Source: Candidatus Nomurabacteria bacterium RIFCSPLOWO2_01_FULL_39_18 | GTDB taxonomy: Bacteria > Patescibacteriota > Minisyncoccia > Phycocordibacterales > UBA9973 | DNA length: 64,000 bases | Reading direction: 5' to 3' | Assembly (NCBI GenBank): GCA_001787005.1 | Contig: MFUV01000006.1 | Span: 16,197 to 80,196, forward strand | Part shown: positions 2,448-43,015 of the stretch, piece after piece | Position numbering within the stretch: position 1 is the stretch's first letter | Layout: every line of letters begins with the position of its first letter | Translations under genes and position numbers: made by a program | Notes under the pieces: generated by a model | The model's input: the letters and a program-made list of their open reading frames with translations, nothing else | Databases searched by the model: none | What the model was told of the DNA's origin: nothing

Positions 2448-5168
2448 ATGCCACCATTAAATAAATTTACAACTAAAGCCAAAGATGCCATCAAGAAAGC
2501 CCACGAGCTTGCGATAGAACGCGGGGTCAATCATGTTTCCTCCCTTCATTTACTGGCGGCATTACTTCTCCAGGAAGAGTCTATGGTCAATTCAATTTTA
2601 GATAAATTAGAAATTGACACGATGCTTCTGACTGATTCTGTTTTAGAATTGATTGAATTGCCAGAATCACATAATACTCTTTCTCCCTCATATCAGATTT
2701 ATCTCAATCCTGATTTAGCACAGGTGATAGAACAGTCTGCCAAGTTGGCAGAATCAATGAAAGACGACTTTGTTTCAACTGAGCATCTCTTTATTGCCAT
2801 ATTGGAAGTCACAAGCGAGGCGCGTGAGACCTTGGCGCGATTTAGAATTCAAAAAGATTCTGTTATAAAAGTCCTAGAAGAGCTACGTAGTCAGAATATT
2901 ACTGATGTGACAGAGCCCAAAAAATTTAAATTGCTTTTTAAATACACTCGCAATCTAACTAAGCTGGCAAAGGAAGACAAACTAGATCCTGTCATTGGTC
3001 GCGACAATGAAATAATGCGCATTATGCAAATACTTTCTCGCCGGACAAAAAACAACCCCATTTTGATAGGGGAGGCTGGCACTGGGAAAACAGCAGTAGT
3101 GGAGGGGCTGGCGCAAATGATCGTAAAAAGTAATGTTCCAGAATCCTTAAAAGATAAAGAACTCGTTTCCCTTGATTTAGGGATGCTTGTGGCTGGTACA
3201 AAATATCGCGGAGAATTTGAGGAGAGACTAAAAGGCATCATGAAAGAAATCGAGCGATCAGACGGCAGAATTATTCTTTTCATCGACGAAATTCACACGA
3301 TTGTTGGAGCGGGTGGCGCTGAAGGCACGATGGATGCTTCGAATATGTTAAAGCCGGCGCTTTCTCGCGGAGAACTGCGGGCTATCGGCGCAACGACATT
3401 GCGAGAATATCAAAAACATATTGAAAAAGATCCGGCTCTGGCGAGACGTTTCCAGCCAGTATATATCGATGAGCCTGGGATAGAAGATGCTATTGCGATA
3501 CTGCGGGGGTTAAAAGAAAAATATGAGCTTTTCCACGGTGTCCGTATTACTGATGATGCGATAGTTTCTGCGGTCAATCTGTCTGCTCGTTACATCACTA
3601 ATAGATTCTTGCCGGACAAGGCGGTGGATTTGATAGACGAAGCCTCTTCTTCTCTTAAAATAATGCTTGAAAATAAACCACCAGTTTTGGAGGATGCGCA
3701 TAGAAAAATAATGCGCTTAGAAATCGAAAAAGAAGCATTAAAAAAAGAGGTTAGTTCCTTTGCTCTAGAAAAAAACAAAGAAGAAAAGGAAAAAGAAAAA
3801 GAGATAAAAAATAGAATTAAAGAGGTAGATAAAGAAATAGGCAATTTATATGAAAAGACAAAAGAGCTTGAACTGAAGTGGAAGAATGAAAAATTAATCG
3901 TGGTTGAAATACGCTCGATTAAAAAGGAACTGGAAAGTATAAGACTGGAGGCAGAAGATGCGGAAATGAAATCAGATTTATCTCGCGCCGCGGAAATACG
4001 TTATGGTAAAATACCAGCGCTTAAAAAAGATCTTGAAGTCAAATTATTGCGTCTAAAGAAACTTCAGAAATCGCGCAGAATCCTAAAAGAAGAAATTACG
4101 ACCGAAGACATCGCGGAAGTGGTTGCTCGCTGGACAGGCATACCGCTTACCAAGATGCTTGAGGAAGAGCGTGTAAAGCTGGAGAAGATGGAAGTAGAAT
4201 TGAAGAAAAGGGTTATTGGTCAAGACGAGGCTATAATGCGCGTGGCGGATGTCATACGACGCAGTCGCGCTGGCATAGGAGACCCCAACAGGCCTATCGG
4301 ATCCTTCATCTTTCTGGGTCCGACGGGGGTTGGAAAAACCGAACTTACTAAAGCGCTCGGGCAGTTTATGTTCAACGATGATCGCGCGATTATCCGTGTG
4401 GACATGTCTGAATACATGGAAAGGCATTCAATGTCCAAACTCATCGGTTCTCCTCCGGGATACGTTGGTTATGATGAAGCGGGACAACTGACCGAATCCG
4501 TGCGGCACAGACCATATGCGGTGATACTCTTTGATGAAATTGAGAAAGCTCATCCGGAAGTTTTCAACGTGCTCCTCCAGGTTATTGATGAAGGAAGATT
4601 GACGGATGGAAAGGGGAGAGTAGTGAACTTCAAAAACACAATTATTATTCTTACTTCCAACATCGGCTCGCAATTCGTAGAAAAAATGGAATCAATCGGA
4701 TTTTCCAATAATTCCAATAAGCAAGACTACGGTAATATGAAAGAAAAAGTCATGGAAGCGCTGAAAGACAATTTCCGTCCGGAATTCCTAAATCGTCTTG
4801 ATGAAACTATTGTCTTCGACATCCTATCTCTGGAAGCCTTGAAAGAAATAGTAAACTTGAGGATAAAAGTGGTCAAAGATCGCTTAGCCGGGAAGGGCAT
4901 CAATTTTGAAATTACCGAAGAGGCCTTGTCTCATTTAGCAAAAGAGGGCTACGATCCGCATTTTGGCGCTAGGCCCTTGAATCGCTTGATTCAAAATAAA
5001 ATTTTGAATCCTGTTGCGTCATACATTATTGGGAATGGAGTGAAAAAAGGCGATACTGTCTCTGTCTCTGTAAAAAACGAAGAGCTTGTTATCGAGAAGA
5101 AAAAGAACCATTTAAGAGGAGGCAAAATAAAAAGTTCAATTAGCGTACGACCGAAGTCTGAGGTGTAA
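2448..5168 (+). CDS. clpB: ClpB, the AAA+ disaggregase chaperone.
   Basis: It has two NBDs ([16 protein letters not shown] and [16 protein letters not shown]), a long coiled-coil M-domain between them, and [19 protein letters not shown]. Confidence 0.9.
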
Positions 5169-7245: not shown

Positions 7246-9084
7246 ATGGAAATTAGAAATATCGCAATTATTGCGCACGTGGATCATGGCAAGACGACCC
7301 TGACCGATGCTCTGATGAAGCAAAATGGCGCTCTGCAAGATGAAGGAGTGTCAATGGATTCAAATGCTCTAGAAAAAGAGCGTGGTATTACTATCTACTC
7401 AAAAAACACCTCCATCTTTTATAAAGATACTAAGATAAACATTGTAGATACTCCCGGCCACGCGGACTTCGGCGGAGAAGTAGAACGTGTTTTGCGGGCT
7501 ATCGATTCTGTGCTTTTGCTTGTAGACGCAGTCGAGGGACCGATGCCTCAGACTAGATTTGTTTTGAAAAAGTCTTTAGAGCTTGGACTCAAACCCATCG
7601 TAGTTATAAATAAAATAGACAAGCCTGCTTCCGATCCACATCGAGTACATGATGAAATTTTGGGATTATTTTTTGAATTAGGCGCTTCCGAAGAGCAGGC
7701 CAATTTCGAAACGATTTACGCTATCTCGCGCGAGGGGAAAGCCTTCAAGAATCTTGGTGATGAATCCAAGGACCTTTCTCCATTGCTTGATTTAATATTA
7801 GAAAAAGTCGTACCAGCCTCAGGTCGAGAAGATGAAAAAATGTCGGCTCAGGTCTTCAACTTGGGTTATGATAATTTTTTAGGCAGGATGGCTGTTGCGC
7901 GAATTTACTCAGGAAAAATTTTGTCTGGAAGCACTATTTTTGTAAAAGGTCTGCCTGCGCAGGCAGGAGAAAACGGTACGCGAAAGGGGAAAATAACGAA
8001 ACTCTTCACATTCCTCGGAATAAATCGCAAAGAAGTAGAGACTGCTTCTTCAGGTGATATCGTGCTTTTAGCCGGGGTTCCAGACATATATATCGGAGAA
8101 ACTATATGCGAAGATGAAAATACAGAACCATTACCCGCTATCGCGATCGATGAGCCCACTTTATCTCTCAACTTTCTAGTGAACGATTCTCCATTTGCGG
8201 GTCGTGAAGGGAAGTTTGTTACCTCTAGGCAAATCAAAGAAAGATTAGAAAAAGAATTGGAGATAAATGTGGGTCTTAGAGTTGATTTTTCTCCGAACCA
8301 GGGAGATAAAAAATCAGGCCTGCCTGCGCAGACAGGACCGTCTTTTTTCAAAGTCTACGGTCGGGGAGAACTTCACGTAGCAATATTGCTCGAAAATATG
8401 CGCCGGGAAGGTTTTGAGATGCAGGTATCAGAGCCGGAAGTCATTATTAAAGAAAGTAACGGAATAAAAACAGAACCATATGAAGAATTAGTGATCGATG
8501 TTCCGATGGAATTCTCCGGTAGTGTCATAGAAAAGATCGGCAAACGAAGGGGGGTAATGAGGGATATGGTAGAAAAGCAAGGAATTGCAAGGATTATTTT
8601 CGATATACCAACCCGAGGCTTTCTGGGCTATCGTGGGGAATTTATCATAGACACAAAGGGGGAAGGAATAATGTCAGGAAGGGTTACCGGCTTTAAAGAA
8701 TATGCTGGAGAAATTAAAAAAAGAGAGTATGGATCTATGGTTTCTATGGTCTCCGGCAAAGCGGTAGCCTTTTCCCTTGCAAATCTTCAGGAACGTGGTA
8801 TATTGTATATTGAGCACGGAACTGAAGTGTACGAAGGGATGGTCATTGGCAATGTTTTAAAAGGAGATGACATGTCGGTGAATCCTACGAAAGGGAAACA
8901 GCTCACCAATATGCGGGCATCAGGCACTGACGAAGCTATTTCCTTGAATCCGGTTTTCATTTTAAGTATTGAACGAGGTCTTGAGGTTATGAGCGCAGAT
9001 GAGTATTTAGAAATCACTCCGAAATCCGTCAGGCTTCGCAAGAAGTATCTAACCGAAATTGACAGGAAAAAGTCCCGATTATAA
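7246..9084 (+). CDS. typA: TypA/BipA translational GTPase.
   Basis: It has [10 protein letters not shown] and [16 protein letters not shown], with EF-G-like domain order. Two in-frame 18-mer palindrome inserts encode GLPAQAG. Confidence 0.9.
7950..7967. repeat. 18-nt palindrome (t)CTGCCTGCGCAGGCAGG, in frame within typA (LPAQAG).
   Basis: Perfect palindrome; one of four copies. Confidence 0.8.
8319..8336. repeat. 18-nt palindrome copy CCTGCCTGCGCAGaCAGG, in frame within typA.
   Basis: One mismatch from the consensus; encodes LPAQTG. Confidence 0.75.
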
Positions 9085-9091
9085 TCGGGAC
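9072..9091. repeat. Hairpin GTCCCGA-ttataa-TCGGGAC overlapping the typA stop codon.
   Basis: The stem is 7 bp and the TAA lies in the loop. No 3' T-run follows, so a terminator role is uncertain. Confidence 0.35.
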
Positions 9092-9112
9092 AAAATAAAG
9101 AAAAAATTACCT

Positions 9113-9180
9113 GTCCCGTACTAAATTTTGATTACGGGGCATAAAGATAAAGGTTATTAGTAAAATTTTAGTACCGGGAT
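9113..9180 (+). repeat. Long hairpin element with ATCCCG...CGGGAT-like termini; the 3' arm ends in the start codon of the 9179 gene.
   Basis: gtcccgtactaaatttt ...35 nt... aaaattttagtaccgggATG. A near-identical element lies at 22352. Confidence 0.55.
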
Positions 9181-10207
9181 GCCAACAATATCTTTTAAAC
9201 CCAAAAAAGTCACGAAAAAAATAGTTTCCCATCTACAAAGTCGAGCCAGCGATGTTATTTTGAATCGTTTTGGTTTGACCTTGGATGGGACCAGGAAGAC
9301 TCTTGAAGAAATTGGCAAGAAATATAACATAACCAGAGAGCGAGTACGCCAAATTGAAAATGTAGCCATATCTTTGATTAAAAAGTCTCACGCATATAAA
9401 GGGGAGCAAGTGGCTTTCGACGAACTTAAACAATTGGTGCACAAATTAGGATCCATCGTAGCTGAACATGAGCTCTTGTCTCATATTTCGAAGGACAAAG
9501 CAATTCAAAATCATATCCATTTTTATTTAGTGTTGGGCGACGTGTTTAAAAAGCACCGAGAAGACGACCATTTCCATACTCGCTGGAGTGTGGATGATGA
9601 AATGGCAGAAAAAGTGCATGACTCTTTGAAAAAGCTTTATGCAAGTTTAAATGACGAAGATCTTATACCGGAAACGGAGATGATTAAAAAATTCTTTGAT
9701 CATATGAAGGATGTTGCCGAGCAATACAAGAATGAAGAGATGGCTCGAAGATGGCTTTCTATGTCAAAAACAGTTTCCAAAAATCCACTGGGCGAATGGG
9801 GCAAGACGACATCGCCCAACATTCGGACTCGCGGGGTGAAGGACTACGCGTTTCTCGTGATGAGACGCCACGGTTCGCCTATGCATTTTAAAGAAGTTGC
9901 AGATTCCATTTCCAAAACCTTTAATAAAAAAATCCATTATGCCACATGCCACAATGAACTTATTAAAGATTCTAGATTTGTTCTGGTCGGCAGGGGAATG
10001 TATGCTCTGGCTGAATGGGGCTACAAGAAAGGCATTGCCCGTGAAGTCATCCGCGATATTTTAAAAAGAGAAGGTCCGCTTCCTAAAGATGATATTGTTG
10101 CCAAGGTTAATAAAGAAAGGTATTTTAAAAAGAACACCATACTAGTCAATCTTGTTAACCCAAAATACTTCAAGAAAAATAAAAATGGGCTTTATACCGT
10201 GGTTTAA
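9179..10207 (+). CDS. Protein with an N-terminal sigma-70 region-4-like HTH and a C-terminal HARE-HTH/winged-helix-like domain.
   Basis: TLEEIGKKYNITRERVRQIENVAISLIKK matches the sigma r4 signature. The C-terminus reads FLVMRRHGSPMHFKEVADSISK...GRGMYALAEW. Regions 1-3 of a sigma factor are absent. Confidence 0.45.
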   Translation: MPTISFKPKKVTKKIVSHLQSRASDVILNRFGLTLDGTRKTLEEIGKKYNITRERVRQIENVAISLIKKSHAYKGEQVAFDELKQLVHKLGSIVAEHELLSHISKDKAIQNHIHFYLVLGDVFKKHREDDHFHTRWSVDDEMAEKVHDSLKKLYASLNDEDLIPETEMIKKFFDHMKDVAEQYKNEEMARRWLSMSKTVSKNPLGEWGKTTSPNIRTRGVKDYAFLVMRRHGSPMHFKEVADSISKTFNKKIHYATCHNELIKDSRFVLVGRGMYALAEWGYKKGIAREVIRDILKREGPLPKDDIVAKVNKERYFKKNTILVNLVNPKYFKKNKNGLYTVV

Positions 10208-10210
10208 CAC

Positions 10211-10235
10211 CAGATAGAGCTTTAGACTCTATCTG
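10211..10235. repeat. Palindrome CAGATAGAGCTTTAGACTCTATCTG (REP-like).
   Basis: One of four copies, at 10211, 10652, 11131 and 27288. Confidence 0.7.
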
Positions 10236-10246
10236 TAAAATAAATT

Positions 10247-10636
10247 ATGTCAAAACCAGATGAATTTCTAAAAGCTGACAACACAGAAAAAGGCAAAGAA
10301 GCTAGATTGGCAAAAGTATTAAAAAGCCAGAGAGAGAGAGAGTTATCTAGGGTCTTCGAAAAACTTTTTCCACTAAACCAAGAAAGGTACATGTTGGAGT
10401 TTTATGATTTTGAAGAATGGACTAATTTTTTCCGTAAGTTTGGCGAAACAATTAGGATTTTATTATCACTTGATCCATTTGTTGATAATTTGACGCTAAA
10501 AACTGAATGTCAGGAAGTCCTTGTTTTATTAGATGGTCAAGACAGGAATCAGGGTAAAAGATATTCAAGTTTAGTAGAAAAACTCTTTCAATTTTTTATT
10601 GACAATCAAATTTTTCCACCATCAAAGTTACCGTAG
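10247..10636 (+). CDS. Hypothetical protein bracketed by REP-like palindromes.
   Basis: Called from the ORF only; flanked by palindromes at 10211 and 10652. Confidence 0.35.
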   Translation: MSKPDEFLKADNTEKGKEARLAKVLKSQRERELSRVFEKLFPLNQERYMLEFYDFEEWTNFFRKFGETIRILLSLDPFVDNLTLKTECQEVLVLLDGQDRNQGKRYSSLVEKLFQFFIDNQIFPPSKLP

Positions 10637-10651
10637 AATAGAATTACATTA

Positions 10652-10676
10652 CAGATAGAGGTCTAGACTCTATCTG
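10652..10676. repeat. Palindrome CAGATAGAGgTCTAGACTCTATCTG.
   Basis: Member of the family; it closes the frame just upstream of the truncated RAYT. Confidence 0.7.
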
Positions 10677-10681
10677 AGCCC

Positions 10682-11146
10682 TTGGTTGCAATTATTGCTT
10701 ATTGTCTAAATCCAAACCATTTTCATTTTATCTTAAAACAATTAGTTGATGGTGGCATAGCTAAATTTATGCAAAAACTACAAGGAGGTTATACTTATTA
10801 TTTTAATGTAAAAAATTCCCGTACCGGATCGCTTTTTCAAGGAACTTTCAAGTCACATCTCATGAATAGTGAAAATTATTTTAATAAAATTCTTGGGTAT
10901 ACAAATAAAAACTATCAAGTTCACAATATTCCAAAAAATAAAATGGATCTTATTTTCGCTAGCGACTTCGAGTATGAAAATAATAATTTTAAGATTGTTT
11001 CCAAAAAAGAAGGAAAAAGAATTTTGGAAATTTTTAATGGTAGCAAAAATTTTAAGAAACACTGCGATGAGATTGTTTCAATTATTAGAAAAGAAAGAGG
11101 TAAAACTTCTCTTTTAGAAGAAGACAATCTCCCAGATAGAGTCTAA
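10682..11146 (+). pseudogene. N-terminally truncated IS200/IS605-like (RAYT/Y1 HUH) transposase fragment.
   Basis: AYCLNPNHFHFIL matches the HUH motif AYCLMPNHFHVL of the full RAYT at 51467-52105. The region is homologous through GxxxGxFKS, but the N-terminal YHLYNRG part is missing. It begins at a TTG right after a stop inside the palindrome. Confidence 0.6.
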
Positions 11147-11159
11147 AGCTCTATCTGGG
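11131..11159. repeat. Palindrome cCCAGATAGAGTCTAAAGCTCTATCTGGg.
   Basis: Member of the family; it supplies the last codons and the stop of the RAYT fragment. Confidence 0.7.
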
Positions 11160-11203
11160 TATTTTGCTTTGTTTTCTTTACTTTTTGTATTAAAATGTAG
11201 AGT

Positions 11204-12568
11204 ATGGTAGACACTGTGCTTTTCTTTATCTATAAAATTGCGATTGTATGGCTTTTGCCCTTGGCTGGCACAGGATTTGTCGGCTGGGTGGCATGGAAAA
11301 TCTGGGTTCATTACATACAGCAAGATTTTATTTCCGGCATAGATTTTGTTTTACTTGAGGTAATACCCCCGCGCGAAGTCTTGCGTAATCCAAAAGCAAT
11401 GGAACTTTTTATCTCGAACGCCCTATATCATTTCAGCTACAAAGGGGGAAAAGAAGAATATTGGCAAGGTGCTATTTGGTTCTGGTTTTCTTTGGAAATT
11501 GTCTCTCTTGAAGGACAAGTGCATTTTTATATTCGCACGCCGTCAAGAATCAAGGGTTTAATTGAGACGCAAATGTATGCTCAATATCCTCAATCTCAGG
11601 TCAAAGTAGTTGAGGATTATACTTTAGCAGTGGACGAAATAACGCCCGAGAGCGCTTGGAATGGCTGGGGATGCGAGTTTAGATTGCTGAAACCAGAAGC
11701 GTATCCGATTAAAACTTATATTGATTATGGATTAGACAAAGATCCGGATGAAGAATTAAAAGTTGACCCTATTTCTCCGATAATAGAATTTTTTGGCTCA
11801 CTTGGAAAAGGCGAGCAAGCCTGGGTGCAAATTGTGGTTACGCCTTCAAAGAAAATGTATCATACCAAGGGCACCTGGTTTGGAGAGCACGATTGGGTAG
11901 AAGAAGCCAAGCAACAGTTATTCAAATTATTATTACCCTATACTTCTAGAAGAGAAGATATGGGCGAAGGAGAAAAAGTTCTTAAGTTGGCTCGAATTGA
12001 AATTCGTACCCCATCTATTTTAGACAGAGCTACGAAAGCAATGAGCGCAAAAACTTCCAAGCTTGGTTTTGAGACTGGCATCAGGGTAATGTATATAGCC
12101 AAGAAAGAAGTTTATCCGCCCGGTTCGCGAACCAATAATTCTAGAGATATTCGTCTGATCTTTCGTCAATACACAGCTCCAGATGTTAACGGACTGGATC
12201 GAATAAATTCAGCTCAAGGGGACGCTCTTAATAGCAGCATACTTACTCTTTCTAAATATCAAATAATGATTCTGGCCAACCGGATGCTCCACGAATATCG
12301 AGAACGAGCATTTTTCCATCTTCCCCTAAGACATCATCTTTTTTCAATACATGTTTTTGAAAAAATATTCCCCAAACCTGTTATTCATGCAATATTCATG
12401 ACCGTAGTAAAGAAATTTTTCTTGCCTTATGTTCATCATCAGACTTATGTTTTAAACACTGAAGAGCTGGCGGCGCTGTGGCACTTCCCGGGCCAGATAT
12501 TAAAAGTTCCTACGCTTACTCGTATTGAATCTAAAGAAGCTTCTCCGCCTCCAAATTTGCCTATATAG
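11204..12568 (+). CDS. Hypothetical protein with an N-terminal transmembrane segment.
   Basis: Hydrophobic N-terminus IAIVWLLPLAGTGFVGWVAWKIWV. No recognised domain. Confidence 0.4.
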   Translation: MVDTVLFFIYKIAIVWLLPLAGTGFVGWVAWKIWVHYIQQDFISGIDFVLLEVIPPREVLRNPKAMELFISNALYHFSYKGGKEEYWQGAIWFWFSLEIVSLEGQVHFYIRTPSRIKGLIETQMYAQYPQSQVKVVEDYTLAVDEITPESAWNGWGCEFRLLKPEAYPIKTYIDYGLDKDPDEELKVDPISPIIEFFGSLGKGEQAWVQIVVTPSKKMYHTKGTWFGEHDWVEEAKQQLFKLLLPYTSRREDMGEGEKVLKLARIEIRTPSILDRATKAMSAKTSKLGFETGIRVMYIAKKEVYPPGSRTNNSRDIRLIFRQYTAPDVNGLDRINSAQGDALNSSILTLSKYQIMILANRMLHEYRERAFFHLPLRHHLFSIHVFEKIFPKPVIHAIFMTVVKKFFLPYVHHQTYVLNTEELAALWHFPGQILKVPTLTRIESKEASPPPNLPI

Positions 12569-14062: not shown

Positions 14063-14091
14063 AATCAAAAAACTATGAAATATACTTTTTA

Positions 14092-14162
14092 AGGGGTTTT
14101 GCGAGCGACGGCGAGCAAACTTCAGGATTTTTTAAGCTTCAAAAAATCCGTACCGGCAAAAA
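14092..14162 (-). repeat. Intergenic REP-like ~70-nt element, in inverted orientation relative to the copies at 763, 15083 and 26558.
   Basis: Its reverse complement matches ttccggtacggatttttcgaagcttaaaaaatcctgaagttttcgcgccgtcgcgctc. It contains an internal ggatttttt...aaaaaatcc hairpin. Confidence 0.65.
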
Positions 14163-14193
14163 GTTATATTTGATAGTTTTTTGAATATCATTT

Positions 14194-15393
14194 ATGAAAA
14201 AAAAAGTTGTTTTTGTCGGACTTTCGGGGGGCGTTGATTCTGCGGTTTCAGCAACCATACTAAAGAAGCAAGGTTTTGAAGTCGTGGGAGTTTTTATCAA
14301 AACCTGGCACCCAGATTTTTTAGAATGTAACGAAGAGGAAGAGCGTCGCGATGCCATGCGCGTGGCAGCATATTTGGATGTTCCTTTTTTAACATTTAAT
14401 TTAGAAAGTGTTTATAAAAAAGAAGTTGCAGATTACATGATTTCTGAATATAAAACTGGACGGACGCCGAATCCAGATGTGATGTGTAATAAAAAAGTGA
14501 AGTTTGGCGCGTTTCTCAAAAAAGCTATTTCCATGGGAGCTGATTTTGTGGCGACGGGGCACTATGCGCAAGTTGGCGAAGCTGGAAACTACTTTTTATC
14601 AGGTCCTCGGATTCCTGGGTCCCTCCCCCAGCCAGACCATGCTAAAAAGTATTTCCAGCTTCGCCAAGGTCCGGATAAGTCCAAAGACCAAAGCTATTTT
14701 CTTTGGACCCTTAAACAAGAGCAACTTTCGAAAATAATTTTTCCAGTTGGAGATTTAAAAAAGACAGAAGTGAGAAAATTGGCTAAAAAGTTTAGACTGC
14801 CTGTGGCAGAGAAGAAAGACAGTCAGGGAATATGTTTCCTGGGCGCGGTGGATTTAAAAGAGTTTTTAAAACATTATATAAAAGAAAAAAAGGGAAAAGT
14901 GCTGAATACCGAAGGTGAAATAATAGGGTGGCATAATGGCGCGGTTTTTAATACGCTTGGAGAGCGGCATGGTTTTACAATTACAAAAAAGGGTCCAAAT
15001 GACGGACGATATTATATTGTTGCTAAAGATGTTAAGAAAAATATTTTGATCGTGTCTCAAGAAAAAAATTATCTTACAAAGAGCACGGATATTTTTTTGC
15101 TAAAAAATTCCTCGTACTCGCGCCAGTCGCGCTCGCAAGTCTCTTTGCAAGACAATTTTTTTCTTTCGCTAGAAAATGTAAATTGGATTTCTAAAGTTCC
15201 AGATTCAAATAAAAATTATACCGCTCAAATTCGTTACCATGGAAAATTTTTATCATGCAAAGTAAAGGTCGTAGATCCCGAGCGGAAGCGAAGGGCTGAA
15301 ATAATTTTTAGAAAACCGATCATGGTTGCCTCCGGCCAGTCCTGCGTTGTTTATGATAAAGACGTCTGTCTGGGCGGAGGGGTGGTGAAATAA
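14194..15393 (+). CDS. mnmA: tRNA 2-thiouridylase MnmA.
   Basis: It has the PP-loop SGGVDSAVSA, GHYAQV and DQSYFLW. An in-frame REP-like insert sits at 15083-15150. Confidence 0.85.
   Translation: MKKKVVFVGLSGGVDSAVSATILKKQGFEVVGVFIKTWHPDFLECNEEEERRDAMRVAAYLDVPFLTFNLESVYKKEVADYMISEYKTGRTPNPDVMCNKKVKFGAFLKKAISMGADFVATGHYAQVGEAGNYFLSGPRIPGSLPQPDHAKKYFQLRQGPDKSKDQSYFLWTLKQEQLSKIIFPVGDLKKTEVRKLAKKFRLPVAEKKDSQGICFLGAVDLKEFLKHYIKEKKGKVLNTEGEIIGWHNGAVFNTLGERHGFTITKKGPNDGRYYIVAKDVKKNILIVSQEKNYLTKSTDIFLLKNSSYSRQSRSQVSLQDNFFLSLENVNWISKVPDSNKNYTAQIRYHGKFLSCKVKVVDPERKRRAEIIFRKPIMVASGQSCVVYDKDVCLGGGVVK
15083..15150 (+). repeat. Intragenic, in-frame REP-like element inside mnmA.
   Basis: gcacggatatttttttgctaaaaaattcctcgtactcgcgccagtcgcgctcgcaagtctc encodes ...SSYSRQSRSQVSLQ..., like the SRSQVS in the 763 copy. 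Confidence 0.6.
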
Positions 15394-27339: not shown

Positions 27340-28995
27340 ATGAACCAAGAGACTAAAAACTGTATTGATTGCAAAAATGAATTTGAAATAGATTCCGGTG
27401 ATTTGGTTTTGTATGAAAAAATTGGCTTAAAAATTCCGGAGCAGTGCTTCTTTTGTCGGATAAAACAGTATTCTGCTTTTTGGGTTTTTGGAAAATTCAG
27501 GAAGGGGGTCTCAAATTTATCAGGAGAAAGTTTGATTACTGTTTTGCCCTCTAGTCCGAGATATCCTATTTACACATCACATGAATGGTGGGGAGATGCG
27601 TGGGACCCGATGACTTTTGGGCAAGATTATAATTCATCTAGACCCTTTTTTGACCAATTAAAAGAACTTCAAGAAAAAATTCCCCGACCACACCAAGTTA
27701 GTTCAAAGAGTACCAACTGCGACTGGTGTGACGATTCTTGGGATTCAAAGAATTGTTATCTTTGCAGGTCTATTTTAAAATGTGAAAATACAAGTTATGG
27801 TTATCGGATTATAGAAACGAAAGATTCTTTTGATATAGTTTATTCTTTTAATTTACAAAATTCTTACAATTGTTTATTGTGTTACAATTCTTTCAATTTA
27901 AATTTTTCAGAGAATTCCAAAGATTGCATAGACTCGTATTTTCTTTTCGATTGTCGAAATTGTCAGAATTGCTTTATGTGCTGGAATTTACGCAATAAAC
28001 AGTATTGTATTCGAAATAAGCAGTACACAAAAGAAGCATATGAACAAGAACTTAAAAATATTAAATTAGATTCTTATGAAAATGTTGAAAATCTAAAGAA
28101 TGAACTTGAAAATATGTTAAAAAACGAAGCTGTGCATCGCGAGAATTTTAATTTGAAAACTACCAATTCTATTGGGAATTACATGACTAATTGCGACAAG
28201 TGTGTAAATGTTTTTTCTTGGGAAAATTCACAAAATTCACGCAATTCATTAAGGGGTTTAAATACCAAAGATTGTATAGATCAATTAGGTTGTTGGAATA
28301 ATGAAATTTCAGGAGACAATAGCTGTGTCACGGGTGGTTACGAAATAAAGCATTCGTCTTGGTCTGACGGCCGATATTCAGAGTACATCGATCTGTGTAT
28401 TGAAGTTGAACATTGCTTTGGTTGTGTCGGTCTTCGTAAAAAGAAATATTGTATCCTGAATAAACAATATGAGAAAGAAGAATATGAAATTCTGAAAGAT
28501 AAAATTATAAAGGATATGGAAAAAAGGGGAGAATATGGAAAATACTTACCATATTCTATGGGTATATGTGATTATAATTTGTCTAATGGTTTTGTTTATT
28601 TTCCCCAAACTACTAAAGAAGAAATAATAAAAAAAGGTGGCTACTGGTCAGAAGAAAACTTGTCTTCTAAGGATGGGATTTCTTCCGCAAAGCTTCCGGA
28701 TAGTATTCTAGACACAAAACCAGAAATTACTTCACAAGCTCTTATCTGTCCGGAAACTCACTACAGATTTAACATCTCACAAGATGAGTATGAATTTCAC
28801 AAAAATAAAAATTTTGCTTTACCCCGAATACATTTTGATTTAAGAATATTAAAAAAAGTAAAGAAAATTACCGCACTTAGGGGTTATCCCTACCAATGTA
28901 TTTATTGCTCAAAAAACATCAATGCCTATTATCCGCCAGAATGGGGATACCAAAAAATCGCCTGCGAAGATTGTTATAAAAAAAATATCGCCTAA
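27340..28995 (+). CDS. Large cysteine-rich protein, paralog 1 of 5. It has an N-terminal CxxC-17-CxxC zinc ribbon, a central Cys-repeat region and two C-terminal zinc ribbons.
   Basis: The N-terminus reads KNCIDCKNEFEIDSGDLVLYEKIGLKIPEQCFFCR. Repeated NCxxC...CxNCxNCFxCxNLRNKQYCIxNKQYTKEAY units follow. The C-terminus contains two CxxC pairs (CIYCSKN...CEDCYKKNIA); the YAPERPEIVYCEKCYQQEVY tail of paralogs 2-5 is absent. Confidence 0.55.
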   Translation: MNQETKNCIDCKNEFEIDSGDLVLYEKIGLKIPEQCFFCRIKQYSAFWVFGKFRKGVSNLSGESLITVLPSSPRYPIYTSHEWWGDAWDPMTFGQDYNSSRPFFDQLKELQEKIPRPHQVSSKSTNCDWCDDSWDSKNCYLCRSILKCENTSYGYRIIETKDSFDIVYSFNLQNSYNCLLCYNSFNLNFSENSKDCIDSYFLFDCRNCQNCFMCWNLRNKQYCIRNKQYTKEAYEQELKNIKLDSYENVENLKNELENMLKNEAVHRENFNLKTTNSIGNYMTNCDKCVNVFSWENSQNSRNSLRGLNTKDCIDQLGCWNNEISGDNSCVTGGYEIKHSSWSDGRYSEYIDLCIEVEHCFGCVGLRKKKYCILNKQYEKEEYEILKDKIIKDMEKRGEYGKYLPYSMGICDYNLSNGFVYFPQTTKEEIIKKGGYWSEENLSSKDGISSAKLPDSILDTKPEITSQALICPETHYRFNISQDEYEFHKNKNFALPRIHFDLRILKKVKKITALRGYPYQCIYCSKNINAYYPPEWGYQKIACEDCYKKNIA

Positions 28996-29084
28996 AAATT
29001 AAAAAAGCATAATAGTACAATAAACGCTACCGCTACCATTGTACTATTATTGTTTTTTTTATTATAAAATGATAAAATATTTTC

Positions 29085-30794
29085 ATGAATAGAGAAACTC
29101 ATAAATGTCAAAACTGCAAAAAAGATTTCATCATCGAGCCGGACGATTTTTCTTTTTATGAAAAAATAAAAGTTCCTCCGCCGACTTTTTGCCCGGAGTG
29201 CCGCATGATCCGACGTTTGTACTGGCGTAATGAACATTCTCTCTTTCGTAGACCCAACAGCACCCCAGGGTTCTCAGGGGAACACATTTCTATCTATCAT
29301 CCAGATGCGAAAATTACTTCTTATGATAAAGAAATGTGGTGGAGTGACAAATGGGACCCTTGCGACTATGGCGCGGATTATGATTTCGACAGACCATTTT
29401 TTGAACAATTCAAGGAGCTTTTAGAGAGGGTTCCGCATGTATCGTTTTTTGAGGGTAAATCAATAAATGCAAAATTTTGTAACTATGTTGTTGAGTTGAA
29501 AAATTGTTATTTAGTGACTGCTACTTGGAGATGCGAGGATTCAATGTATGGCAATCGTCTTTTTGAATGTAAATTTACCCACGATTCCTACATTTGTTCT
29601 CATACTGAATTTTGTTATGAAAATGTATATTGTAGCGACTCAAACCGACTATTTTTCTCCAGAGAAAGCGAGAATTGTTTGGATTCTTACTTTTTATATG
29701 ACTGTCGCAATTGCTCTAATTGCATTTTGAGTACAAACTTAAGAAACAAAAGTTACTGCATAGAGAATGTACAATACTCAAAAGAAGAATATTTTAAAAA
29801 GAAAAAAGAATTAGAGTTGAATACTAGATCAGGCATTAAAAAAGCAAATAAAAAATTTGAAAAACTATGGCAGAATGCATTCCATAAACACCTCAAGCTC
29901 ATTAACACCAATAATGTGGTCGGAGATCATGTTTCTAATTCACGCAATGCATACTACATTTTTGATTTCAGAGACGATGCGGAAAATGTGAAATATGCGC
30001 ATTGGGGTAATGGAGGATTAAAAGATTCCTATGATACAGGTCCGGGCTGTGGATATAAATCAGAAATGGGTTATGAAGGTGTGAGTACTGGTGATAAAAA
30101 TTATAAAACTTACTTTTGTGTCACGGTGTGGTATTCGAGGGATATCTACTATAGCCTTATGCTGAGTGATTGCCATGATTGCTTCGGGTGTGCCGAAATG
30201 CACAACAAGCAGTATTGTATTTTGAATAAGCAGTATACTAAAGAAGAATATCAAAATTTGTTACCTAGAATAATCAAACACATGAAGGAAATGCCATATG
30301 TTGACAAGGTGGGCAGGTCATATGAATTTGGAGAATTTTTTCCGGGAGAATTATCCCCGTTCGCTTATAATGAAACTGTAGCTCAAGATTATTTTCCAAT
30401 TGGGAAAGAAGATGCAGAATCAAGAGGATATTTATGGCGTGAATATATTCCCAATACTTACAAGACTACCGTAAAAGGGAACGAACTCCCCCAAACGATT
30501 TCCGAAGTTGATGATTCCATTCTTCATCAAGTAATTGAATGCGAAATAACTAAAAAGCCTTTTAAAATTACAGAACAAGAGTTGAGTTTTTATAGGAGGT
30601 TGGATTTGCCATTACCCTCTACTCATCCTGATGAACGACATAATCAAAGATTGAAATTAAGAAATCCGATGACTCTAAGGAAAAGGATGTGTTATTTTGG
30701 CGATAAAGAAGTTGATACAACTTATTTATTGGAAGAAGAAGGTGGTCCTCAAAAAGTAGTTTGCACAGAACATTATAATAAAGAGGTATATTAA
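29085..30794 (+). CDS. Large cysteine-rich protein, paralog 2.
   Basis: The N-terminus is MNRETHKCQNCKKDFIIEPDDFSFYEKIKVPPPTFCPECR and it has the same Cys-repeat architecture. Confidence 0.55.
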   Translation: MNRETHKCQNCKKDFIIEPDDFSFYEKIKVPPPTFCPECRMIRRLYWRNEHSLFRRPNSTPGFSGEHISIYHPDAKITSYDKEMWWSDKWDPCDYGADYDFDRPFFEQFKELLERVPHVSFFEGKSINAKFCNYVVELKNCYLVTATWRCEDSMYGNRLFECKFTHDSYICSHTEFCYENVYCSDSNRLFFSRESENCLDSYFLYDCRNCSNCILSTNLRNKSYCIENVQYSKEEYFKKKKELELNTRSGIKKANKKFEKLWQNAFHKHLKLINTNNVVGDHVSNSRNAYYIFDFRDDAENVKYAHWGNGGLKDSYDTGPGCGYKSEMGYEGVSTGDKNYKTYFCVTVWYSRDIYYSLMLSDCHDCFGCAEMHNKQYCILNKQYTKEEYQNLLPRIIKHMKEMPYVDKVGRSYEFGEFFPGELSPFAYNETVAQDYFPIGKEDAESRGYLWREYIPNTYKTTVKGNELPQTISEVDDSILHQVIECEITKKPFKITEQELSFYRRLDLPLPSTHPDERHNQRLKLRNPMTLRKRMCYFGDKEVDTTYLLEEEGGPQKVVCTEHYNKEVY

Positions 30795-30821
30795 AAATGA
30801 CATTATGTCATTTTACAAAAT

Positions 30822-32553
30822 GTTAGAATGAATAATCAAAGCGAAAAAAGAATATGCCAGAATTGCAAAAAGGACTTCACCATCGAGCCGGATGATTTTG
30901 GATTTTATGGAAAATAAAAGTTCCACCACCGACGTTTTGTCCGGAATGCAGACTTCAGAGAAGATTTGCCTGGCGGAACGAGCGGGCGCTTTACAAGCGC
31001 AAATGTGACTTATGCAAGAAAGATATTATTGCCATGTACCATGATTCTGTTTCATTCCCAGTATATTGTAGGGAGTGTTGGTGGGGAGATGGATGGGATG
31101 CTTCTTCTTACGCACGAGATTACGATTTTAATAAAAGTTTTTTTGAACAATTTAGTGAACTCTTAAAAGTTGTTCCGCGGCTCGCCCTTTTTCAAAGAAA
31201 TATAGTTAATTCAGATTATAGCAATATGGTTGTGGAATCAAAGAATGTTTATCTTTCTCATTCAGTAACCCAAAAATCTGAAAATGTTTTTTATTCGAAA
31301 AGCGTTGATGCCTCTCGAGACATATTTGATTCTCTGAATATTATTAACGGGTCGGAAAATTTATATGAAAATGTCGAGGCGCAGGGGAATTATAATTCGC
31401 AATACCTTTTACTCTGTCGTGGTGTGCTTGACTCTTATTATTGTGTGGATTGCATCAATTGTAGCAGTTGTTTTATGTCTTACAATTTGCGTAATAAACA
31501 GTTTAATATTCGCAATAAGCAATATACACGAGAAGGATATTTAAAAGAGCTTGAAAAATTAAATTTTAAAAGTCACCAAGCAAGGGAGGCTCTGCAGGGG
31601 GAATTCGAGGAAATAAAGAAGAAAGCTATTTATCGTTTCGGCAACATTACAAAATGTGTAGATGTTACTGGTAATAATCTGCTTAATGTTAAGAACGCCA
31701 AGGATTGTTTCGAGATATATGAGGCAGAGAACTGTAAATTTTGTTACAGGGCTCTATATGTCAAAGACTGTATGGATTTTACTTTTGGTGGCTGGTCGGA
31801 ATTGTGTTATGAGTATGTTACCGGTTCCATAAACAATTACAATGTTAAATTTTCCTCCAATGCTTTTAGTGTTCGTGATGCAGACTATGCTGATTATTGC
31901 ATGGACTGCAACAGTATTTTCGGATGTATTGGTCTCAAAAAGAAAGAAAATGCAATTTTGAATTGAATAGAGTTTATTCTAAAGAAGAATTTATAAAGTT
32001 AAGAGAAGAAATTATCAAGCAGATGAAAAAAATACCTTATGTGGATAAAAAAGGAAATGTTTATGAATACGGAGAATTTTATCCAACAGAGCTATCTACC
32101 TGGGCTTACAATGAAACCCTAGCACAGGAAATTTTCCCCTTAAGTAAAGAAAAAGCGGAGAAAAATGGTTATTCGTGGTGCGAACCAGCCGTAAAAAATT
32201 TCGATATAACTATGCCAGCAGAGAAAATTCCTGATAATATAGATAATGCAGGGGAGGAGATTCTGAAAGAAATTTTGGGTTGTGCGCACAAAGGGGACTG
32301 CGATCATCAATGTAGCACGGCTTTTCGATTAACTGACTATGAATTAAAATTTTATAAAAAACACGACATACCGCTTCCTATTCTTTGTTCCAACTGCCGT
32401 TATTACGAAAGAGTCAAAGTCATGCCCGCATTGAAACTTTGGCATCGAAAATGTATGAAAAGCGGATGTCCAAATGAATTCGAAACAGCGTACGCGCCAG
32501 AACGTCCGGAAATAATTTACTGTGAGAAGTGCTATCAGCAGGAAGTATATTAA
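30822..32553 (+). pseudogene. Cysteine-rich family paralog 3, disrupted by at least two frameshifts.
   Basis: The N-terminal fragment MNNQSEKRICQNCKKDFTIEPDDFGFYGK* stops at an A-run near 30913 (ggaaaataaaag against gaaaaaataaaag in paralog 2). The sequence continues in another frame (31034..31966). A second break near 31960 precedes the C-terminal part (31897..32553), which ends YAPERPEIIYCEKCYQQEVY. Confidence 0.6.
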
Positions 32554-33223: not shown

Positions 33224-35161
33224 ATGTCAAAAATCATAGGTATAGATTTGGGTACAACAAATTCAGCAGTAGCCGTCATAGAAGGAGGCGCACCGAAGAT
33301 TATAGAAAATGCAGAGGGAAATCGTACGACCCCCTCTGTGGTTTCGGTCGCCAAGAATGGCGACAGGCTTGTCGGACTTCTTGCTAAAAGGCAGGCAGTT
33401 ACCAACCCGGAAAATACAATTTACGGGATCAAGCGTTTCATGGGTCATAATTTTGAAGACCCGGAGGTGCAGAAAGATTTGAAAAATGCGTCATTCAAAG
33501 TTCAGAAAGGAGCCACCGGCGGAGTGGAAGTAAAAATTGGTGATAAATGGATGCGCCCAGAAGAAATCTCCGCGATGATTCTGTCAAAAATAAAATCTGA
33601 TGTGGAAGCGAAATTGGGAGTGAAAATTACTGAAGCGGTCATAACTGTGCCGGCATACTTCAACGATGCGCAAAGAAAAGCAACCAAAGATGCGGGGCAA
33701 ATTGCCGGGCTTGATGTGAAGCGTATCATCAATGAGCCGACAGCCGCCGCTCTCGCCTATGGATTCAATAAAAAGAAAAATGAAAAGATCGTAGTGTTTG
33801 ATTTCGGCGGGGGAACATTTGATGTGTCTGTGCTCGAGATTGGTGATGATGTAGTTGAAGTTAAGTCCACTGATGGCGACAGCCACCTCGGAGGCCGCGA
33901 TATTGATCACAAGATAATCAACTGGATTGCAGAAGAATTTAAAAAAACTTCTGGCGTGGATGTGCGTTCTGACAAGCTTGCTCTACAACGTCTGGACGAA
34001 GCGGCAGAAAAAGCGAAAATCGAGCTCTCAACCGCCATTGAAACAGAAATTAATATTCCATTCATCACTTCTACGGCGCAAGGCCCGCAACACTTACTTC
34101 TTAAAATGACTCGAGCCCAGCTCGAATCTATCGCTGATGAATATATAGCTCGTTCGATAGAGATAACGAAGCGCGCGATGGCTTCTTCTGGTTTTAAGAT
34201 TGAAGATATGAATGAAATAGTGATGGTGGGTGGGCAGACCAGAATGCCGAAGATCGTTGAGGAAGTGAAAAAGGTTTTCAATAAGACCCCAAACTTAACT
34301 ATCAACCCGGATGAAGTCGTGGCTCTCGGCGCCGCTGTGCAGGCGGGGGTATTGCAAGGAGATGTGCGAGATGTTCTACTCCTTGACGTGATACCACTTT
34401 CGCTTGGCATTGAGACATTGGGCGGAGTGGCCACTAAATTAGTTGAAAGAAATACGACTATTCCTTCAAATAAGTCGCAAGTGTTTTCTACTGCGGCTGA
34501 CAACCAGACTTCCGTAGAAATTCACATTACTCAAGGCGAGCGTCCAATGGCGAGCGACAATAAATCTTTGGGACGATTTATACTAGATGGTGTACCACCA
34601 GCACCGAGGGGCATGCCCCAAATAGAAGTGTCCTTTGATGTGGATGCCAATGGAATTCTAAATGTTACGGCAAAAGACAAAGCCAGTGGCAAGACCCAGT
34701 CCATTAAAATTGAAGCAAGTTCAGGACTCAAAGAAGAAGATATTAAAAAGATGCAAGCCGACGCGGAGCTTCATGCTGAAGAAGACAAAAAGAAAAAAGA
34801 CGTTGTGGATACAAAAAATACCGCAGAGATGATTATTTACACTGCTGAGAAAGCGCTGAAGGACAACGAAGCGAAAATTCCGGCAGAATTAAAAGATAAC
34901 GTGAATGCTAAGATCACAGCACTGCGAACCGCAAAAGACCTGCCTGCGCAGGCAGGTGGCACGGATTCAGATGCAATCAAAAAAGCGACCGAGGAACTTT
35001 CAACCGAAATGTCTAAAATTGGAGAAGCGATTCAGAAAAATTCACCCGAATCCGCAGGAGGCGGGCAGGCCAAGGCTCCCGAAGAACAGCCGACAGAAGT
35101 CAAAGACGCAGAATTCAAAGAAAAAAAAGAAGGGGAAGAAGGTGAATCTCCAAAAGCGTAA
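33224..35161 (+). CDS. dnaK: Chaperone DnaK (Hsp70).
   Basis: [24 protein letters not shown] and [15 protein letters not shown] are present. There is an in-frame 18-mer palindrome insert (DLPAQAGGT) near the C-terminus. Confidence 0.95.
34939..34956. repeat. Perfect 18-nt palindrome CCTGCCTGCGCAGGCAGG, in frame within dnaK.
   Basis: Encodes LPAQAG. Confidence 0.8.
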
Positions 35162-42979: not shown

Positions 42980-43015
42980 TTGTCTTATTCGTACGAATAG
43001 GTAAATAGAAAAAGT

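Follow-up and report, generated by a model that had tools for sequence, protein, structure and literature searches.

A RAYT-like gene of a groundwater Nomurabacteria bacterium probably decapitated by deletion between its own hairpins, with cognate hairpins inside the genes of its relatives

We analysed a 64-kb stretch of DNA, referred to here as the window, from a groundwater (Rifle aquifer) Candidatus Nomurabacteria bacterium, a member of the candidate phyla radiation (CPR). The window contains an open reading frame (ORF) related to the RAYTs, the Y1 (HUH) transposases associated with repetitive extragenic palindromes (REPs), lying among copies of a 25-nt palindrome. We conclude, with a probability of about 0.85, that this locus is a RAYT gene decapitated by a hairpin-to-hairpin deletion of about 211 bp, and that it represents a decayed unit from a REP/RAYT clade confined to Nomurabacteria and other Paceibacteria. 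The deletion itself is seen directly in alignments with syntenic relatives, and its mechanism is what we infer. The element in the window is an ordinary dead transposase gene, and explaining it exposed REP/RAYT features that are not described in the literature searched. Such systems proved to be widespread in CPR/Patescibacteria, bacteria with tiny gene-dense genomes.

The deletion is evident from comparison with relatives from Hainich groundwater and another data set (loci L097/L098, L179 and L180). In these loci a sigma70_r4/HARE-HTH gene (hereafter the sigma-like gene) is followed by hairpin 1, a homologue of a small window gene termed ORF129, hairpin 2, a full-length RAYT, DUF8128 and YceG, and the RAYT itself carries an in-frame hairpin 3 and has hairpin 4 over its 3' end. 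Hairpin 1 of L097, L179 and L180 overlaps the stop of the sigma-like gene and supplies its QIAP-stop ending. DNA alignment showed that the hairpins are spaced 453, 211 and 484 bp apart in L097 and 441 and 481 bp apart in the window, the middle interval being gone. One hairpin stands at the window junction where L097 has two separate hairpins about 211 bp apart, and L179 and L180 also show the intact state with separate hairpins and a full RAYT. The in-frame hairpin of the intact relatives lies at the same codon position as the window copy at 10652, and because these relatives hold two hairpins about 211 bp apart at this point the 10652 copy is read as the fusion left by the deletion. A reading of the window made from its letters (the original prediction) implied instead that the 10652 palindrome was an inserted element that cut the gene, which the alignments with L097, L179 and L180 do not bear out.

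The position of the gene is kept between genomes (typA, sigma-like gene, RAYT, DUF8128) even though the neighbouring genes are only about 80% identical. In another Rifle Nomurabacteria genome (L182-184) the sigma-like and DUF8128 genes enclose a full-length orthologue with 89% identity but no ORF129, and the absence of ORF129 from this position indicates that ORF129 plus one hairpin forms a hairpin-bounded indel. A mirror image of the window allele was found in L075, where only residues 1-65 are left: the coding sequence stops directly behind the internal hairpin, and unrelated DNA follows. The deletion allele was present in 21/21 Rifle contigs carrying ORF129 and in a second metagenome-assembled genome (MAG), where it is represented by the 154-aa protein P0006.

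The RAYT remnant occupies 10667-11146 on the + strand and corresponds to residues ~57-220 of a protein of ~220 aa. Its frame is open from 10667 and the earliest possible start is a TTG at 10682, while gene callers choose an ATG at 10769. The practical effect is that gene callers misplace starts and ends near these hairpins, and here a 125-aa "hypothetical protein" is the RAYT remnant. The remnant matched Pfam Y1_Tnp with 25.4 bits (gathering cut-off 23; E = 1.6e-5) over profile positions 41-116 of 121, and as the match opens only at position 41 the first third of the domain is missing. The HUH motif (NHFHF, in which HFH is the HUH) and the conserved Tyr are kept, and the beta1/alpha1 region with YHxYNRG is gone, leaving the catalytic core incomplete through the absence of residues 1 to ~57. 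Together the Pfam match and the homologue alignment establish the ORF as an N-terminally truncated RAYT-type Y1 transposase that kept HUH and lost the YHxYNRG strand, as had been predicted. The remnant is 86-89% identical to full-length RAYT-like proteins of ~220 aa from Nomurabacteria and other Paceibacteria. Database searching returned 932 relatives, several of which carry the JGI name RayT, and the best 120 of these are 78-99% identical and nearly all full length at ~220 aa.

Both ends of the remnant lie in hairpins. In the RAYT frame the fused hairpin at 10652 reads CAG ATA GAG GTC TAG; the peptide is Q I E V, then a stop, then T L S E. The TAG belongs to the hairpin loop, and the open frame of the remnant starts directly behind it, in agreement with the claim that it follows a palindrome-borne stop. 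The 3' arm of this hairpin together with the bases downstream encodes (A)LSEPLVAI, which is conserved in full-length homologues. At the other end the remnant closes with CCA GAT AGA GTC TAA inside hairpin 4, giving the codons P-D-R-V and a TAA stop at 11144-11146. Full-length homologues share this ending, terminating in LPDRV, LPDSA, LPDRG and similar peptides followed by the stop, which are translations of CCAGATAGAGTCTAA and CCAGATAGCGCCTAA, and the shared ending indicates that the 3' hairpin overlaps the gene end natively. The C-terminus and stop do therefore come from a palindrome as originally proposed, but this is native to the whole family and not a product of truncation. The remnant contains no frameshifts or internal stops and retains every family-invariant residue. 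Compared with the syntenic orthologue of L182 the ratio of nonsynonymous to synonymous substitution rates (dN/dS) was 0.04 with no excess dN, and intact genes gave 0.04-0.15. Used as a clock for the deletion dN/dS gave no signal, dS to the nearest orthologue already being ~1.1. With strand beta1 and helix alpha1 missing, the remnant is very probably inactive.

To locate the palindrome in the window we searched for the pattern CAGATAGAG-N7-CTCTATCTG with up to 3 mismatches, using 100 dinucleotide-preserving shuffles as background. No shuffle contained a match, giving a chance expectation of 0, and the search confirmed the predicted copies at 10211, 10652 and 11131 and the doublet at 27288-27332. 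Hairpin 1 (10211-10235, + strand) is an exact REP-like hairpin, CAGATAGAG-CTTTAGA-CTCTATCTG, that begins 3 nt past the stop (10205-10207) of the sigma-like gene at 9179-10207 and folds as DNA with -6.9 kcal/mol (z = -5.3). The fusion hairpin (10652-10676, + strand), CAGATAGAG-GTCTAGA-CTCTATCTG, has 2 mismatches in the loop. Hairpin 4 (11131-11159, - strand) has an exact core at 11133-11157 with the opposite loop orientation, TCTAAAG; its stem extends to 12 bp, CCCAGATAGAG...CTCTATCTGGG, over 11131-11159 and folds with -11.3 kcal/mol. The start at 11131 given in the original prediction is thus the first base of the extended stem, the 25-nt core starting at 11133. The segment 10210-10235 forms a perfect 26-nt inverted repeat with 11133-11158. 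The REP doublet (27288-27332, with no single strand assigned) consists of a 20-nt partial + copy at 27288-27307 abutting a full - copy at 27308-27332 with 2 end mismatches, and folds as one 21-bp hairpin of -21.8 kcal/mol (z = -10.6). Apart from this doublet, the single-stranded DNA folding energies of the copies were -6.9 to -11.3 kcal/mol. A search of 9000-12500 for known RNA families found none, the sole match being a sub-threshold snoRNA.

ORF129 (10247-10636, + strand) encodes a hypothetical protein predicted to form a four-helix bundle and is bounded by hairpin 1 and the fusion hairpin. It had no match in Pfam, NCBIfam or PHROGs, and its AlphaFold2 (AF2) model (mean confidence score, pLDDT, 75) gave only generic helical-bundle fold matches with E > 0.6. 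Five homologues at 60-100% identity were found, those in L097/L098, L179 and L180 being 78-81% identical, and 5/5 homologue clusters adjoin a RAYT in one of two arrangements, tandem with a P0008-type RAYT or divergent. In the divergent arrangement (L093-L096) the RAYT is only 35% identical, the hairpin is another one (TGTTAAACAC...) and the context is formed by PPDK and glutaredoxin genes. By tblastn no homologue of ORF129 turned up beside any of the other 80 RAYT loci from metagenomes. The gene is a conserved neighbour, neither part of the transposase nor cargo of a palindrome cluster. The idea of a hypothetical ORF bracketed by palindromes thus holds in that hairpins do bound ORF129, but in relatives it is a conserved neighbour upstream of an intact RAYT. 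A reading of the bracketed ORF as an integron cassette (attC) was dropped, the hairpins being 25 nt long and belonging to the RAYT, with no integrase present.

Sequence steps were also seen around the locus. The 955-bp contig L009 from another sample, aligned to window positions 9833-10787, is 100% identical from ~10103 on and only ~80% identical upstream. The identical stretch runs from within the sigma-like gene (its final 105 bp) through hairpin 1, ORF129 and the fusion hairpin into the beginning of the remnant. The step marks either a sharp boundary of recombination or a chimeric assembly. Mismatches between L010 and the window cluster at 10903-11007. L097 has, downstream of hairpin 4 (~2975-3050), a diverged second copy of the sigma-like gene's 3' end, which is ~65 nt long and reads ...NSKYFKKGKNGFYVLA followed by a stop. 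The sigma-like gene itself now terminates within hairpin 1. This suggests that an ORF130-RAYT block bounded by hairpins entered that gene's 3' end by insertion, or recombined there.

The presence of a hairpin inside intact relatives of the remnant proved to be a general feature. To the genome loci we added 80 RAYT loci taken from metagenomes, with 33-78% identity to the family; 89 of the pooled loci were full-length, all or nearly all of them from CPR bacteria. A script identified the hairpins around or inside each gene that share an 8-mer with one another. A hairpin was found 12-55 nt upstream of the start in 76/89 loci and at or over the stop in 71/89. The same hairpin recurred within the ORF at nt ~157-226 (site 1) in 44/89 loci and at nt ~433-494 (site 2) in 20/89, so that 52/89 loci had at least one internal copy, which always matched the flanking copies. 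Among the 82 loci having a flank hairpin, 52 contained a matching internal hairpin as compared to 16 of 1640 codon-shuffled genes. Without any hairpin criterion, a 12-mer was common to the gene interior and its flanks in 55/88 loci, and E. coli K-12 rayT shared no 10-mer with its flanks. The hairpins differ wholly between loci (ACTTGGAGG..., ACTTAGAAAC..., TTCGGACGT..., TGTTAAACAC..., GACAAGAG..., CAGATAGNG...) and are alike within a locus.

The internal sites are also fixed relative to the protein. In full-length proteins the linker QIESKALSE or QIAPKALSE, which is the one open frame of the palindrome translated, precedes the strand leading to HUH. Site 1 lies 41-59 nt ahead of PNHxH in most loci, and in 9/12 internal hairpins measured downstream of HUH site 2 lies 106 nt past the LFQGxFKS motif. 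An AF2 model of the full-length homologue P0016 (pLDDT 62) places site 1 in a predicted loop between helix 50-56 and strand 68-76, and site 2 would fall in a poorly ordered stretch past the Tyr helix. The best Foldseek matches of this model in the PDB were IS608 TnpA, ISDra2 TnpA and TnpA-REP (4er8), and the full-length family profile had no match among PDB sequences at E <= 0.01. The literature searched contained no report of REPs in frame inside RAYT ORFs. We consider it likely that the cognate hairpin is a built-in, in-frame part of CPR/Patescibacteria RAYT-like genes and that this pattern is real and undescribed. A functional reading, in which the gene, as single-stranded DNA or mRNA, would be a target of the enzyme it encodes, giving autoregulation or a self-limiting circuit with predetermined breakpoints, is speculative and on balance doubtful. 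If it were true, the headless remnant of the window and the tailless remnant of L075 would be outputs of such a circuit.

The hairpins of a locus change in concert. All four orthologous hairpin positions are of the type GAG...CTC in the window versus GCG(C)...(G)CGC in L097, and L179 and L180 are likewise of the GCG type. Six stem variants (GAG, GCG, GGG, GAGG, GGGG and GTGAGAG) occur in the close clade, and each time the internal copy matches its own flanks. In an alignment of site 1 from 17 loci 88% of cells pair, with four pairs showing compensatory changes, as compared to 24-47% in slid controls. The covariation score was 0.188 versus 0.058 for shuffled alignments, a value reached by 0/500 shuffles. 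The internal copy has decayed in L020/L028, L031, L054 and L182 despite intact flanks and an intact gene, and it is therefore not essential. On a single contig of L083 the RAYT hairpins at 2026 and 4314 (5' flank and internal) are GGG/CCC and the dispersed copies at 6455 and 6671 are GAG/CTC, which hints at homogenisation local to the RAYT locus rather than genome-wide. Our reading is that local conversion between the three or four hairpins of the locus has repeatedly overwritten an old in-frame REP; that the internal hairpin is functional is possible but unproven. An internal copy that follows its flanks through full hairpin replacement offers a handle on RAYT-REP co-evolution, setting local gene conversion against selection, and also bears on whether RAYT activity is self-limited.

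Copies of the palindrome outside RAYT loci were assessed in relatives by an exact-stem scan of one genome per species, a collection that did not include the source MAG. The scan returned 82 loci, nearly all from Nomurabacteria, Paceibacteria or other Patescibacteria, at ~5-15 exact copies per related genome; the window has one site beyond the RAYT locus, the 27288-27332 doublet. Seventy copies lay outside RAYT loci and were mostly single hairpins. The stop of an ORF of at least 100 aa fell within the hairpin in 15/70 copies (21% versus 3.1% of random windows) and a further 26/70 lay at most 30 nt past such a stop (37% versus 3.5%), so that 58% were on or within 30 nt after a stop versus 7% at random. 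Only 12/70 were inside an ORF of this size (17% versus 64% of random windows), all of them in frame. These in-ORF copies always read QIESKALS, or DRALDS-QIESKALS in a doublet, and the open-frame readings of the hairpin found in protein loops are QIESKALS or DRALDSI. In either orientation two frames are stopped (the 5' arm has TAG, the loop TAG or TAA) and the third is open, and both the gene-end and the in-frame placements follow from this property of the sequence. Gene ends elsewhere do derive from the palindrome, as seen in the 15/70 dispersed copies of related genomes that hold an ORF stop. CPR palindromes that would be called extragenic often form the last codons and stop of a gene, or sit in frame within genes.

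The grpE gene of the window (26676-27302) is such a case. It ends CCA GAG ATA GAG CTT TAG, in which EIEL and the stop are palindrome bases, and the doublet occupies most of the spacer between grpE and the next gene. After an RPARV-type motif the GrpE tail of the window has 19 aa (...KEKEPEIEL), and the modal length is 15 aa, found in 62 of the 113 listed homologues with the motif. The longer tail fits a native end that was replaced by the hairpin. The proposal that the last four codons and stop of grpE come from the palindrome was correct, and the tail is 4 aa above the modal length. Back-to-back doublets without spacer were found at grpE, L060 and L031 and are a minority of copies. A position-frequency table of 98 oriented copies revealed no conserved bases outside the 25-nt hairpin, and neither a GTAG/CGTC tag nor a cleavage or guide motif. 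Hairpin 4 is the only copy with a T-rich tail (TATTTTGCTT) fitting a terminator pattern; no T-run follows the copies at 10211, 10652 and 27308, and terminator-like sites were not enriched (4 versus 2.9 expected). In L090 (Candidatus Taylorbacteria, 1600-2200) the hairpin ends a tandem unit of ~218 bp, ...GGTGATGAGTCGGCGAACCGGGGCGGTTGTGTATCAGATAGAGTCTAAAGCTCTATCT, which repeats with other G+C-rich stem-loops and contains no RAYT.

A RAYT or TnpA-REP gene together with its cognate REPs is known as a REPtron and has been described in E. coli, Pseudomonas and Stenotrophomonas (PMC2817692, PMC3116915, PMC3333891, PMC6006769). The CPR system resembles it in having an HUH/Y1 gene between two copies of a cognate palindrome that related genomes also carry dispersed elsewhere, in pairing one hairpin type with each transposase lineage with several lineages per genome, and in a gene that is syntenic and under strong purifying selection with no sign of unit mobility. 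There is one gene per hairpin type and inheritance is vertical, as seen in the position kept in L097, L179/180 and L182-184 and in the dN/dS of 0.04-0.15. It differs in that one or two conserved loop positions within the ORF hold an in-frame hairpin (52/89 loci), with a hairpin also routinely over the last codons, in numbering ~5-15 copies per genome and not hundreds, with many copies that are not extragenic, and in consisting of a bare 25-nt hairpin, without GTAG/CGTC tag and mostly a singlet rather than a REPIN or bacterial interspersed mosaic element (BIME). The protein of ~220 aa with a C-terminal extension and the CPR/Patescibacteria hosts are further differences. Classical REPs have a 5' guide tetranucleotide that is conserved as GTAG or CGTC (Di Nocera 2013, PMC3733652; Ton-Hoang 2012, PMC3333891), and REPINs, which are two inverted REPs with a spacer and mostly doublets, are not matched by hairpins that are mostly dispersed singly and whose doublets lack a spacer. 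Against the NCBIfam model REP_Tyr_transpos (NF047646) the remnant, P0016 and a second RAYT of the window scored 24-33 bits versus a cut-off of 80, indicating a distinct clade and not orthologues of the proteobacterial type. The system works like a REPtron, agreeing with it in structural and genomic criteria and departing from it in two classical sequence criteria, the equivalog score and the GTAG/CGTC tag.

Some E. coli strains have lost tnpA-REP by a precise deletion that kept the flanking BIMEs (Ton-Hoang 2012, PMC3333891). In both cases a RAYT gene was removed by a deletion ending at its own REPs, but in the window one end-point lies inside the coding sequence, only the first ~57 codons are gone and a headless ORF is left; L075, which keeps only the head, mirrors this. 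One deletion end-point within the gene is what is new as compared to the E. coli loss. A REP can sit immediately past the rayt stop, and four rayt genes with the 3' end integrated into a BIME have been described as exceptions (Nunvar 2010, PMC2817692). These cases likewise show REP-generating processes reaching into rayt itself, although there the gene end becomes the inter-REP spacer, and no in-frame REP within an ORF was reported. These exceptions aside (PMC2817692), the literature searched places REPs and REPINs outside genes, in the space that flanks RAYTs, and it contained no study of REP/RAYT systems in CPR/Patescibacteria. As far as can be told, the wider architecture, with cognate hairpins in the transposase ORF and at gene ends of CPR genomes, is new as a form of REP/RAYT system.

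Other systems share parts of this architecture. Ogata and colleagues reportedly described in 2000 Rickettsia palindromic elements (RPEs) inserted in frame in protein-coding genes. RPEs are ~100-150 bp long, and we know of no cognate transposase for them. In both systems short palindromes are tolerated in frame and add a surface peptide, here QIESKALS in the RAYT and in 12/70 dispersed copies, but the present hairpins measure 25 nt, go with a Y1 transposase and are found mainly at the 3' ends of genes. RPEs are also mentioned in a review of MITEs (miniature inverted-repeat transposable elements; PMC10969869). The Y1 HUH transposase fold is shared with IS200/IS605, in which subterminal hairpins are recognised as single-stranded DNA; unlike in those elements, there is no evidence of whole-unit transposition, no tnpB is present and solo hairpins are dispersed alone.

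These observations can be combined into a proposed course of events. At this position in relatives the intact unit consists of a 5' hairpin, ~20-40 bp, an HUH/Y1 gene of ~220 aa and a 3' hairpin over the last codons and stop, and codons ~57-65 of the gene form an in-frame copy of this hairpin, in a predicted surface loop between helix 50-56 and the pre-HUH strand. The two upstream hairpins would have served as 25-bp direct repeats, which they can do because their arms are identical in either loop orientation, and the ~211 bp between them were deleted. With this segment the gene lost its start codon and ribosome-binding region together with codons 1 to ~57, including the YHxYNRG strand and helix alpha1, and what remains is the single fused hairpin at 10652, with its loop TAG in the RAYT frame, and the headless remainder of the gene. 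As the deletion mechanism we favour slippage during replication or recombination at the hairpins through short homology, the alternative being RAYT-catalysed cleavage and rejoining at two REPs. The other copies (10211 and the doublet at the grpE end) would be ordinary dispersed REPs. By analogy with the biochemistry of E. coli TnpA-REP, the enzyme may have bound single-stranded hairpin DNA while it was active, placing copies at new sites. Copies can end genes because the hairpin holds stops in two of three frames in either orientation, and in gene-dense genomes they would persist just after stops, over last codons, or in the open frame in tolerant protein loops. It had been suggested that the palindrome was mobilised in trans; this is unlikely, since more than 70 of the 89 loci pair each RAYT with its own hairpin sequence.

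Several points weigh against a decapitated RAYT as the full account of the locus. The remnant shows no relaxed constraint, so that either the deletion is recent compared with the divergence of the species, or the fragment still has a use or is under constraint, and an intact second copy of the remnant-type RAYT may exist elsewhere in the source genome. Loop orientation was tried as a marker of the hairpin from which the fusion derives and rejected, same and flipped orientations being ~50:50 across loci, and for this reason the loop of the fused hairpin cannot prove the crossover site. The remnant, P0016 and the second RAYT fail the NCBIfam REP_Tyr_transpos cut-off, the RAYT-like family is assigned as a transposase from sequence and predicted fold, with the enzymatic activity of its members putative, and the hairpin families, with ~5-15 exact copies in each genome and 2 extra in 205 kb of flanks, are low-copy and far below classical REPs.

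Three other explanations of the locus were weighed. The palindrome, alone or with ORF129, could have inserted into an intact RAYT, splitting off the N-terminus and donating the upstream stop and a new C-terminus. This would account for a fragment whose frame opens directly after a palindrome TAG and closes in another palindrome, for the two same-orientation copies flanking ORF129 and for the hairpin-bounded indel indicated by the lack of ORF129 at the same intergenic position in L182-184. However, no N-terminal RAYT coding sequence was found upstream of 10211 or elsewhere in the window, relatives having ORF129 carry a complete RAYT downstream, and an internal hairpin and a hairpin-encoded C-terminus occur in intact genes. 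Being already contradicted by the alignments with L097, L179 and L180, insertion is extremely improbable. A role of the palindromes as host regulatory hairpins (terminators or mRNA-stabilising stem-loops) selected at gene ends, with an incidental link to the transposase, would agree with the 58% of dispersed copies on or at most 30 nt after a stop, and the 11131-11159 copy followed by TATTTTGCTT does match the terminator pattern. The other copies lack a T-tract, though, with terminator-like sites not enriched (4 versus 2.9 expected), some copies are in frame within ORFs, and over ~80 loci the hairpin sequence co-varies with the adjacent transposase lineage, unlike a generic terminator. We regard this explanation as very unlikely, and some copies may have a secondary terminator role.

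The units could also be autonomous insertion sequences (IS) of the IS200/IS605 type, the hairpins being their subterminal ends and the solo hairpins the debris of excised or decayed copies. The hairpin-tnpA-hairpin geometry does resemble IS200, IS608 and ISDra2 TnpA are among the best structural matches, the hairpin families are low-copy, two RAYT-like genes occur in one 64-kb window, and scores against the RAYT equivalog model are weak. An IS origin is nevertheless unlikely: the gene holds the same chromosomal position in genomes whose neighbouring genes are ~80% identical, with dN/dS of 0.04-0.15, and no tnpB is nearby, the neighbours of the remnant being ORF129 and DUF8128. The 70 solo 25-nt hairpins have no surrounding IS remnants and no conserved flanking cleavage motif, and the two RAYTs of the window are 37% identical, each with its own hairpin.

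The second RAYT of the window is intact and belongs to another subfamily (gene 51467-52105 within a unit at 51439-52157, - strand). Its own hairpin, TACACAGGC-N3-GCCTGTGTA, lies upstream of the start and over the stop, just these two copies occurring in the window, and the gene contains no internal hairpin copy. There are no near-identical RAYT paralogues within the window, and at 37% protein identity to the remnant and with a hairpin of its own the second RAYT and the remnant are not copies of one IS. That the palindrome around the remnant represents a second REP family, distinct from the one around the intact RAYT, is confirmed by these differences.

Other repeats were observed in the window. 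A G+C-rich perfect palindrome, CCTGCCTGCGCAGGCAGG, occurs at 7950-7967, 8319-8336, 27215-27232 and 34939-34956 (with a weaker copy at 2131-2154) and has a chance expectation of 0. It is found only within coding sequence: twice in typA/bipA, once in grpE (DLSAQAGR) and once in the ORF at 33224-35161. The first typA copy is a clean 6-codon insertion as compared to the L182 orthologue, and some listed GrpE homologues (e.g. KGYKLGERVIRP...) are without the insert. This looks like an in-frame intragenic repeat family without an obvious transposase. Intergenic elements of ~90-120 nt with long near-perfect inverted arms lie at 734-849, 14065-14184, 15059-15165 and 26546-26634; 30-nt arms at 734/820 are 100% complementary, and 14085-14173 matches 26546-26634 over 89 nt with 87% identity. 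These form at least two MITE-like families and are unrelated to the RAYT finding. Paralogous Cys-rich gene arrays of ~550-600 aa, with 60-80% DNA identity in blocks, occupy 27340-32553 and 41303-44758, the first of them starting right after the grpE hairpin doublet.

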